IMG/VR virus record: IMGVR_UViG_2713896785_000012 | Source: a virus | Lineage: Duplodnaviria > Heunggongvirae > Uroviricota > Caudoviricetes | Direction: 5' to 3' (one strand) | Length of the DNA: 16,021 nucleotides | Part shown: positions 11,343 to 13,280 of the stretch, one piece after another | How positions within the stretch are numbered: the first letter of the stretch is position 1 | Layout of the letters: every line of letters begins with the position of its first letter | Notes under the pieces: generated by a model | Told to the model about the DNA's origin: nothing | The model's database searches: none | What the model saw: only the letters and a program-made list of their open reading frames with translations | Program-made: the position numbers and the translations under genes

Positions 11343-13280
11343 TCAGCCACCGGACGCAGTTCCGTAGTTCACACCGGTGATCACCGCCACTGCCGCGGTA
11401 CGGCGACGACGCCAGTTGATCCAGCGCTCCGCACGGATGGCCACGCTGCCGGTCTGAAACATGGAGACCAGTTCCACCGGTGACGGTGTGCTGCTGTCGC
11501 TGGTCGGTTCAGACTGCATCTCCAGTGACGCTTCACGGGACATATCCACCGCCACACCGCCGTCATCAGCCAGATAAATATCCGGTGCATTCACCAGTAC
11601 CAGCTGGTCACCCACATACTGGGAGACAATCACCGGAAGCCCCTGGAAGGTCCCGCCCAGCAAGGTCATGTCCGGATATTCCTTCTGCCCCAGCGCATTT
11701 TTACGCATGGACAGCGCCAGGGCATTCGTGCTGGACATCAGCCAGACCGCACCGGTGGGCTGCAGATTTGCCGTCACAAACTGGCCAAACGCGGCCTCGG
11801 CATCCGCATCCGGGTTACCGGTTGATGCCGTGCCCTTCACATCATGGGTGATGGACGCCGGGGAGACATCCGCCACCGCCGCTTTTTTCGGGTCCACAAA
11901 GTCTGTGTCCAGACGCGCCACCACCGCTTCTGCCAGCGCATTACGGACCAGCGCATCAGCTGCCGGACTGGAAAAACGGATCAGCTCTTCCGTCAGTACC
12001 GCAATGGCCGACACCTTCGCATGACTGAAGGTGATGGATTCAAAATCAAACTTCGTCAGGGGTCTGGCCTTACCCTCCCCCACCCAGCCGGCAGCACCAC
12101 CGGACACCTGGGCATGCACGCGGATATTGAACGGCACCTGACGAAGTGCAGGGATCCCGCCCTGACCAAATCGCCCGATAATGGTCTGCGGACGCAGGTA
12201 ATCAATAAAGTCCTGCGCATATTCCTGGTATTCAGACAGGCTGCCTGCCCACTGCGGGTCCGTGGTGGTCCCTGCCCCCACCGCCGATTTCAGGACATGA
12301 TGCAGACGGCTGTCATCCGGATACTGACGACGGGCCACTTCCAGGGCTTCAGAGCGGACACCTTTAGCCGCGGCCAGTGATTTGGCAAAGCGGGCGAAAC
12401 CAATCCCCTTCTCCAGTTTCTGCTCAACACGGATCACCGGCGCTGAAGCCACCGTGGCCACATTCCCGTTACCGGCCTGTTTCACCGGCTGTGCCGTGGC
12501 GGCCTTACTGGTTTCCAGTTCACGCAGACGCTTCAGGTGCGCATCCACCTGACGGATTTCCGCTGCGGTGTTGTCGTAGTGCTCTTCCTCTTCCACATCC
12601 AGTGTGCGGCCTTCCTCTGCGGCTTTGTTCATGATCTCCTCAAGGGAGGCTGCCAGCGCCGCACGCTTGTTTTCAAAACTTTTAATCTGTTCACCAGTAT
12701 TCATTGCTGACTTTTCCTTATGAAAAGAGGTTATTGACTGTGCCGAAGCGCCGGCAGAAGATGCGATTTTCACCACCGGTTTCCGGTTGCCGGACGCGGC
12801 AGAAAACGGGCGGTCGAAATATTTAATGGTCCGGATGGTGCATTCCGCATTCGCGGGCACGGTGACGGCAGACACCTCCATCAGCTCCCAGCGCAGAAAA
12901 TGCAGTCCGCCTCCGTCCAGATAAGTGTATTCATGGGGCCGGAAGCCCACAGAAAGCCCCCTGACCAGCCCGGTCTTAATGGCAGCCCAGGCCTCATCCA
13001 GCCGGGCTGCCATCTGGGAGGGCATCCCCGGCTCCGGCTTCACCAGCATTGCCGTGATTTCCAGCCCTTCCCTGACCCGACGCACCGTACACTGGCCTAC
13101 AGGGCGGGAATGGTCATGCTGCCAGAGAAACGGGATCGTACTGCCAAACTCCGCCCCCTCCGGCTCCAGGATGTCACCATCCCGATCCGGAGAAGGCGTT
13201 GACGCAATCCCGGTGATCACCCGTTCATCCTCGCTGAAGGATTTCACCGTCAGCAGGGAACAGGCCCGTTTAAGAGTCAC
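11343..13280 (-). CDS. Fused prohead protease - scaffold-like (delta) linker - HK97-fold major capsid protein
   Basis: 645-codon uninterrupted ORF, GTG start 13278..13280 with GGAGG 5 nt upstream. The N-terminal ~160 aa carry prohead-protease hallmarks (ITGIASTPSPDRDGDILEPEGAEF, PFLWQHDH, GLSVGFRP, ELMEVSAVTVPANAECTI). Residues ~185-255 are Glu/Lys/Ala-rich and coiled-coil-like (EQIKSFENKRAALAASLEEIMNKAAEEG...LKRLRELE). The C-terminal ~380 aa resemble HK97 gp5 (LRPQTIIG, AKVSAIAVLTEELIRFSSPAADALVRNALAEAV, TLLGGTFQGLPVIVSQYV, VDMSREASLE). Confidence 0.85.
   Translation of the reverse strand: MTLKRACSLLTVKSFSEDERVITGIASTPSPDRDGDILEPEGAEFGSTIPFLWQHDHSRPVGQCTVRRVREGLEITAMLVKPEPGMPSQMAARLDEAWAAIKTGLVRGLSVGFRPHEYTYLDGGGLHFLRWELMEVSAVTVPANAECTIRTIKYFDRPFSAASGNRKPVVKIASSAGASAQSITSFHKEKSAMNTGEQIKSFENKRAALAASLEEIMNKAAEEGRTLDVEEEEHYDNTAAEIRQVDAHLKRLRELETSKAATAQPVKQAGNGNVATVASAPVIRVEQKLEKGIGFARFAKSLAAAKGVRSEALEVARRQYPDDSRLHHVLKSAVGAGTTTDPQWAGSLSEYQEYAQDFIDYLRPQTIIGRFGQGGIPALRQVPFNIRVHAQVSGGAAGWVGEGKARPLTKFDFESITFSHAKVSAIAVLTEELIRFSSPAADALVRNALAEAVVARLDTDFVDPKKAAVADVSPASITHDVKGTASTGNPDADAEAAFGQFVTANLQPTGAVWLMSSTNALALSMRKNALGQKEYPDMTLLGGTFQGLPVIVSQYVGDQLVLVNAPDIYLADDGGVAVDMSREASLEMQSEPTSDSSTPSPVELVSMFQTGSVAIRAERWINWRRRRTAAVAVITGVNYGTASGG

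Follow-up and report, generated by a model that had tools for sequence, protein, structure and literature searches.

A conserved in-frame start codon inside the protease-capsid fusion gene of a lambdoid Escherichia coli prophage suggests two head products

Introduction

In phage lambda (C/Nu3) and HSV-1 (a herpes simplex virus; UL26/UL26.5), a long protease product and a short product from an internal start share their C-terminus, an arrangement that sets the protease dose. Nested protease/scaffold genes were also shown by ribosome profiling in the archaeal virus HFTV1 (gp17/gp17.5; bioRxiv 10.64898/2026.09.13.751334). In these three systems the scaffold alone is shared and the capsid gene is separate. 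Here we analyze a gene in which a prohead protease, a linker, a scaffold-like segment and an HK97-fold major capsid protein (MCP) are encoded in a single open reading frame (ORF), so that scaffold and capsid would both be the shared part if translation, as we infer, also begins internally. The gene lies in a 16,021-nucleotide stretch of Caudoviricetes DNA (IMG/VR record IMGVR_UViG_2713896785_000012), the whole of which is called the window here, and it encodes the head shell, in functional form, of an E. coli prophage that is lambdoid, long-tailed and of the Stx type.

Protease and capsid protein of HK97 (gp4 and gp5) come from two genes, whereas the window has a single fused one. The protease family, the catalytic His and Ser, the capsid-attached scaffold domain and the capsid fold are the same in both, although the scaffold segment has about 139 amino acids (aa) in the window protein and 102 aa in HK97, and the portal gene follows the capsid gene, unlike the HK97 order. 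In addition, the window protein lacks an equivalent of the C-terminal region of HK97 gp4, which comprises about 60 aa. Duda and co-workers are said to have found, in 2013, that this region targets gp4 into the prohead, a role in which the covalent linker of the window protein would replace it.

The fusion architecture itself is already known, being annotated and documented in several phage groups. It has been described in Arthrobacter phages of clusters AM, AU and AN and in Rhodococcus phage RRH1 (PMC5513430), as well as in thaumarchaeal proviruses (PMC6563490), and was called unusual but recurrent (PMC5513430, PMC6563490). NCBIfam holds a model named 'prohead protease/major capsid protein fusion protein' (NF045541) and PHROGs includes a family 'major head and protease protein'. 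The actinobacteriophage, thaumarchaeal and NF045541 fusions have the same architecture as the window protein and belong to separate lineages; membership of the window protein in NF045541 was rejected, with 52.7 bits against a cutoff of 525 and a match limited to residues 49-267.

Closer to the window is gp03 of Pseudomonas phage PAJU2, annotated as 'prohead protease fused capsid protein', which is 48% identical along its entire length, shares the gene order and has an internal AGGAGG-ATG at the junction, differing in host, in length (668 aa) and in its stronger internal Shine-Dalgarno (SD) sequence. This annotation, together with the NCBIfam and PHROGs fusion families, means that the fusion is not new. 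The same gene, with 95-99.8% aa identity, is present in Sawaravirus WGPS2, BP-4795, Stx2 phage 1717 and YYZ-2008 (PHROG 617), in the same order of terminase small subunit (TerS), terminase large subunit (TerL), protease-MCP, small ORF and portal, with no difference of substance. Records name it variously as 'major capsid protein', 'phage prohead protease', 'major head protein/prohead protease' or 'capsid and scaffold'. Three papers citing PAJU2 (PMC4936722, PMC4729917, PMC8508860) contain nothing on the fusion, and the 'fusion' of a CBASS preprint was set aside because it concerns a protease-scaffold protein and AGS-C domains.

Results and discussion

A start codon at the protease-capsid junction

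The uninterrupted ORF of 645 codons (69.4 kDa) occupies exactly positions 11343-13280 on the minus strand, where all features described below are also found, and runs from a GTG start to a TGA stop. An earlier note on this DNA had given these coordinates correctly while leaving the minus-strand location unstated; the plus-strand reading of the interval was rejected, its translation being riddled with stops. PGAP annotates the identical gene as 'phage major capsid protein' (WP_000173079.1). A protease domain of the S78/HK97 gp4 type (residues 20-152; 12825-13223) is followed by a linker predicted to be disordered (residues 153-192; 12705-12824), whose length and sequence vary among relatives, and then by the delta-like scaffold segment and the HK97-fold MCP.

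An in-frame ATG at 12702-12704 (Met193) is the proposed internal start of a scaffold-capsid precursor of 453 aa and 48.4 kDa. In the AlphaFold2 model Met193 stands precisely where the linker, predicted to be disordered, stops and the first scaffold helix begins, and it is invariant among 12 enterobacterial homologues despite the adjoining variable, indel-rich linker. A HMMER scan of 1.84 billion cluster representatives (50% identity) gave 1174 matches at E <= 1e-30, and the best 150 of these, 38-56% identical to the query, served as distant representatives. Met occupies this column in 112 of them and the adjacent column in 10 more. At the junction codon itself, 72 diverged fused loci have ATG in 68 cases, GTG in 3 and TTG in 1.

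An SD-like TAAGGA (12715-12720) is found within the linker coding sequence, 10 nt upstream of ATG193. When the upstream sequences of the family are paired with the anti-SD sequence, a duplex energy of -5 kcal/mol or lower is reached at 89% of the junctions, against 21% of the 1032 other in-frame ATGs in the same genes, with medians of -5.8 and -2.6 kcal/mol, respectively. The SD core lies 5-11 nt upstream of the junction start in all scored loci but one and is spread over the three codon phases (27/22/20), which indicates that a nucleotide signal is being preserved here, not an amino-acid motif. Many alphaproteobacterial versions carry a textbook AAGGAGG before the junction, and PAJU2 has ccccAGGAGGgcaacgacATG at the equivalent position. 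A promoter scan revealed no sigma-70-like promoter within the ORF for a separate short-form transcript. At the level of sequence, these comparisons show a conserved junction ATG with its SD motif, and they suggest that the capsid precursor is probably also translated on its own, which would uncouple the protease:capsid ratio.

Relatives with separate genes and the nested-pair model

Seven relatives (loci L071, L072, L073, L075, L078, L081 and L082) have separate protease and MCP ORFs in different frames, and in all of them the MCP starts at the equivalent of Met193, with MxTxxEQIxxFExKRA. The unfused forms are placed in at least four positions among the fused ones in a neighbor-joining tree of the capsid parts, L072 being closest to the fused L029. 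Such scattering would be expected if a working internal start makes splitting nearly neutral, and repeated switching between the fused and split states is easily understood if the capsid precursor has its own start in both. The earlier note had argued that a fusion would force a 1:1 protease-to-capsid ratio; the conserved SD and ATG at the junction, and the unfused relatives that begin their capsid gene at that same point, speak against it.

The separate proteases of L072, L073, L078 and L082, whose ORFs end at about 4585-4609 of these loci, finish with a basic/hydrophobic tail, (K/Q/V)PF(V/T)I(R/N)x(I)(N/K), that is absent from the fused genes. By analogy with the C-terminus of HK97 gp4 or the cargo-loading peptides of encapsulins, it is a candidate capsid-targeting peptide.

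We suggest, with reasonable confidence, that the fusion gene is best modelled as two genes nested in one frame, in the manner of lambda C/Nu3 or herpesvirus UL26/UL26.5. Two proteins with a common C-terminus would be made from one frame, a protease-scaffold-capsid chain of 69.4 kDa from the GTG at 13280 and a scaffold-capsid chain of 48.4 kDa from ATG193 (12704). Both would co-assemble into the procapsid through their capsid domains, the full-length subunits bringing the protease inside by covalent tethering. After assembly, the protease would cut itself, the linker and the scaffold segment off every subunit, so that the mature capsid protein would have about 33 kDa; a conserved Lys331 possibly marks the cut. 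The protease dose would then correspond to the ratio of the two initiation events and not to a fixed 1:1.

It is also conceivable, though rather unlikely in our view, that only the 645-aa chain is made and that each capsid subunit carries its own protease (1:1), cleaving itself or its neighbors after assembly. The junction Met and the SD-like sequence would in that case be relics of an ancestral separate capsid gene, or a translational pause site. Several points speak for this single chain or limit the nested-pair model. The 5' SD of the full-length form (AGGAGG, 13286-13291, 5 nt upstream of the GTG) is stronger than the internal TAAGGA (-10.3 and -6.2 kcal/mol, respectively), and the full-length start is ATG in most relatives, so the product ratio, or an excess of the short form, is not predictable from sequence. 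For the same reasons, a weak GTG start was rejected as a general cause of a low full-length level. The internal site could be blocked by ribosomes that are translating the full-length frame. Because the loci of the SD comparison are phylogenetically related, its p-value (Mann-Whitney p = 1e-26) overstates their independence. The putative cleavage site at Lys331 was placed from conservation and a weak alignment with HK97 gp5. Neither protein nor ribosome-profiling evidence of two products, nor any report of internal initiation in a protease-capsid fusion, was found in the searchable literature, which does not reach key HK97 papers. By a rough estimate, about 415 copies of an internal protein of 36 kDa would still fit a T=7 procapsid.

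On the other hand, a relic would be unlikely to stay ATG in 68 of 72 loci at 38-77% protein identity, or to keep an SD at ribosome-binding-site spacing in all three codon phases within the least conserved, indel-rich part of the protein. The repeated switches between fused and unfused genes would also be hard to tolerate unless the capsid protein were already made alone, and HK97, according to textbook knowledge, packages far fewer proteases than capsid subunits. We thus retain the nested gene pair for the window gene, without claiming its conserved internal start as new.

A broader and more tentative proposal, to which we give less than even weight, is that the entire, very large family of S78-protease-capsid fusions consists of nested gene pairs, in which the conserved junction start would yield the scaffold-capsid precursor separately and the full-length chain would be a minor, covalently tethered protease carrier. 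If true, the scheme known from lambda C/Nu3 and herpes UL26/UL26.5 would have a third form, with the capsid protein itself as the shared part, which would explain the free switching of the family between fused and split states. No description of such a family-wide pair was found in the searchable literature, with key HK97 papers out of reach, and specialists may already know of it.

Distribution and integrity of the fusion

A prophage of E. coli 2013C-3264 matches the stretch from 9700 to 15600 with 100% identity, and the module is 100% identical across independent complete genomes. Among the 5426 complete E. coli genomes, 1255 carry the 5.9-kb head module, the median copy number being two. 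The same ORF, 95-99.8% identical, is carried by dozens of Stx1a-, Stx2a- and Stx2c-converting phages in addition to BP-4795, 1717 and YYZ-2008, and the 90%-identity cluster of near-identical proteins has 9916 member sequences. At 73-77% identity, the fused layout occurs in Salmonella, Klebsiella, Enterobacter, Serratia, Pantoea and Kosakonia. Beyond these, both domains are joined in one chain in 142 of the 150 best representatives, from many bacterial groups. A genome scan of 80 loci, taken from Gamma-, Alpha- and Betaproteobacteria and from metagenome-assembled genomes assigned to several other phyla, gave a single tblastn segment in 72. These results show that the fusion is old, widespread and under selection. 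With such frequencies and the existing annotations, the architecture is not rare, contrary to the earlier note, which had called it rare but not unprecedented in prophages.

Two genes could in principle have been joined by an indel from sequencing or assembly, or by a mutation that arose recently as the prophage decayed, since the window does contain a run of Ns elsewhere (9398-9446) and PGAP calls several neighboring tail genes of the 100%-identical prophage frameshifted. We consider this explanation practically negligible for the fusion gene: the ORF is identical or nearly so in hundreds of genomes that were finished independently and in those of isolated phages, the cluster of 9916 sequences agrees with it, and the single frame is kept down to 38% identity in Proteobacteria and other phyla. 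The frameshift or stop that could have been hidden near codons 170-270 is likewise excluded by the identity of the ORF in independent genomes and by the single frame of relatives at 38-77% identity.

The protease part

Pfam Peptidase_S78 (PF04586) matches residues 48-151 with 32.7 bits (gathering cutoff 21). BLASTP aligns the protease part to HK97 gp4 with 29% identity, placing His55 (codon at 13116-13118) and Ser110 (codon at 12951-12953) on the catalytic His65 and Ser114, and these are the predicted catalytic residues. The His is kept in 144 of 144 aligned family representatives and the Ser in 143, both are invariant in alignment A2, and the surrounding motifs (GxSxGF, PAN) are also conserved. 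The score for the NCBIfam equivalog TIGR01543 (44.1 bits) is below its cutoff of 59, and from these sequence comparisons the protease is a divergent S78 member and not an HK97 equivalog.

A Foldseek search with the full-length model returned capsids only, with no protease match, for which reason a separate model of the protease part was made and searched. This AlphaFold2 model, of residues 1-192 alone, has a predicted local distance difference test (pLDDT) score of 83.6, and its top PDB match is the T4 gp21 prohead protease (5jbl), with probability 1.00 but a weak E of 0.011 and a template modelling (TM) score of 0.45-0.51. The family resemblance of the N-terminal part, on which the earlier note had made its reading depend, is thus present both in the S78 match and in the HK97 gp4 alignment.

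The sub-cutoff TIGR01543 score and the identity of just 29% to HK97 gp4 might suggest an inactive remnant that serves as extra scaffold, with maturation by another protease. We regard this as very improbable, given the near-complete conservation of His and Ser (144/144 and 143/144), the retention of GxSxGF and PAN, the confidently modelled fold with T4 gp21 as best, though weak, match, and the head module, where no second protease gene was found. Self-cleavage during maturation, which the earlier note had deduced, would be an expected consequence of the fusion, and the conserved catalytic residues are consistent with it.

Two linker motifs are kept family-wide, AA(S/T)G at residues 161-164 and PG(A/V)SG at 176-180. 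They are possible autoproteolytic cleavage sites or docking elements.

Scaffold helices and capsid body

Pfam Phage_capsid (PF05065) matches residues 386-635 with 55.5 bits (gathering cutoff 24.2), and NCBIfam TIGR01554 (major_cap_HK97) matches residues 204-584 with 80.9 bits against 27.5, beginning at model position 3. Hence, profile hidden Markov models recover both the N-terminal prohead protease and the C-terminal HK97 capsid protein above their cutoffs, as had been predicted. PHROG 617 ('major head protein') aligns end-to-end (E = 3.8e-259), with residues 1-639 on profile positions 7-626 of 626.

The full-length AlphaFold2 run, with an alignment of 46 sequences, gave a mean pLDDT of 78.5. 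The model has a beta-rich protease (20-152), a disordered stretch (153-191), a hairpin (195-262), disorder with three short helices to about residue 330, and an HK97-fold body from about residue 342. The helical hairpin or coiled-coil scaffold segment (residues 195-262; 12495-12698), with helices 195-223 and 229-262 at a pLDDT of about 90, is the counterpart of the HK97 delta domain. It is followed by the disordered stretch with the three short helices (residues 263-331; 12288-12494), ending at the conserved Lys331, and by the capsid body (residues 332-645; 11346-12287). Taken together, the profile matches and the modelled domains bear out the earlier proposal of a protease, a scaffold-like segment and an HK97-fold capsid protein in a single frame, and structure prediction, suggested then as a check, recovers all three.

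A direct BLASTP comparison of the capsid part with HK97 gp5 gave no significant match, which made a fold comparison necessary. With Foldseek, the capsid body matches the Bxb1 capsid (E = 1.3e-14) and the D3, HK97 and T5 capsids (E = 1e-11 to 1e-9); a PDB sequence search gave a single weak capsid match, also Bxb1 (E = 0.003).

Position 331 is Lys or Arg in 148 of the 150 representatives and is followed by A-A-V-A-A-G-T-T-T. The segment immediately downstream of it shows a weak alignment to the N-terminus of mature HK97 gp5. Lys331 is our guess for the maturation cleavage site, and a cut after it would leave a mature protein of 33.2 kDa.

A protein of E. coli O157:H- (P0005, 602 aa), otherwise 96% identical, lacks about 43 residues (query 296-335), corresponding to the region of short helices that precedes the predicted N-terminus of the mature protein. 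If real, the deletion implies that this segment is dispensable.

Neighboring genes

The late operon lies entirely on the minus strand. TerS (15002-15565) and TerL (13344-15005) precede the fusion gene, which is followed by a 73-aa ORF, the portal gene (9767-11131), a repeat-containing gene and head-tail connector genes; further on are an immunoglobulin (Ig)-tagged major tail protein, chaperones and the tape measure protein. The order in 9767-15565 (TerS, TerL, protease-capsid fusion, small ORF(s), portal) is non-canonical, the usual one being TerL, portal, protease, capsid. The same order in PAJU2 (locus L084, 51-7032) makes it a property of the whole module type.

Between the TerL stop and the SD of the fusion gene there is a putative terminator, a GC-rich hairpin with a T-run (13302-13319) identified by consensus match. 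HK97 has a putative terminator at the analogous site before its protease gene. The T-rich tttcgtttcAGGAGG just upstream of the fusion-gene SD is kept in enterobacterial relatives.

Directly downstream of the portal, with an ATGA overlap at 9767-9770, is a gene at 8803-9770 that is broken by the 49-nt N run (9398-9446), with the 18-nt GGTGATACTTTTGCCGTC on both flanks. Its product has repeated P-x-P-x-DGRD motifs and a weak CBM_5_12 match. In WGPS2 it is annotated as a second 'portal protein', while in the PGAP annotation it forms one 'frameshifted' pseudogene together with the portal. Both annotations look wrong, and the gene looks like a separate one for a repeat-containing head-associated protein, perhaps a decoration or fibre.

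The major tail protein (6560-7405) has a C-terminal Ig-like domain (Ig_2 / I-set matches), and our ORF call begins upstream of the PGAP start (717 nt in the identical prophage). In the 2013C-3264 prophage (locus L001), PGAP flags as 'frameshifted' the tape measure, tail completion, gp10-like, connector, minor tail L and tail assembly genes. The corresponding ORFs of the window look intact, for example the tape measure at 2581-5823. The flags in L001 are either homopolymer errors of that assembly or real decay.

Conclusions

As a discovery, the fusion carries little weight, being a standard annotated part of a very common E. coli prophage head module. The annotation of the gene is inconsistent, and the conserved internal start suggests, from sequence, two products for each of thousands of such genes; a two-product annotation, with the full-length form and the form starting at Met193, may suit thousands of genomes better. 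Confirmation of the internal start would reveal how the protease dose is set in these phages even though the genes are fused. The principle of nested genes, shared by lambda, herpesviruses and archaeal tailed viruses, would then reach the capsid protein itself, a modest addition to the case for a common assembly strategy in HK97-fold viruses.

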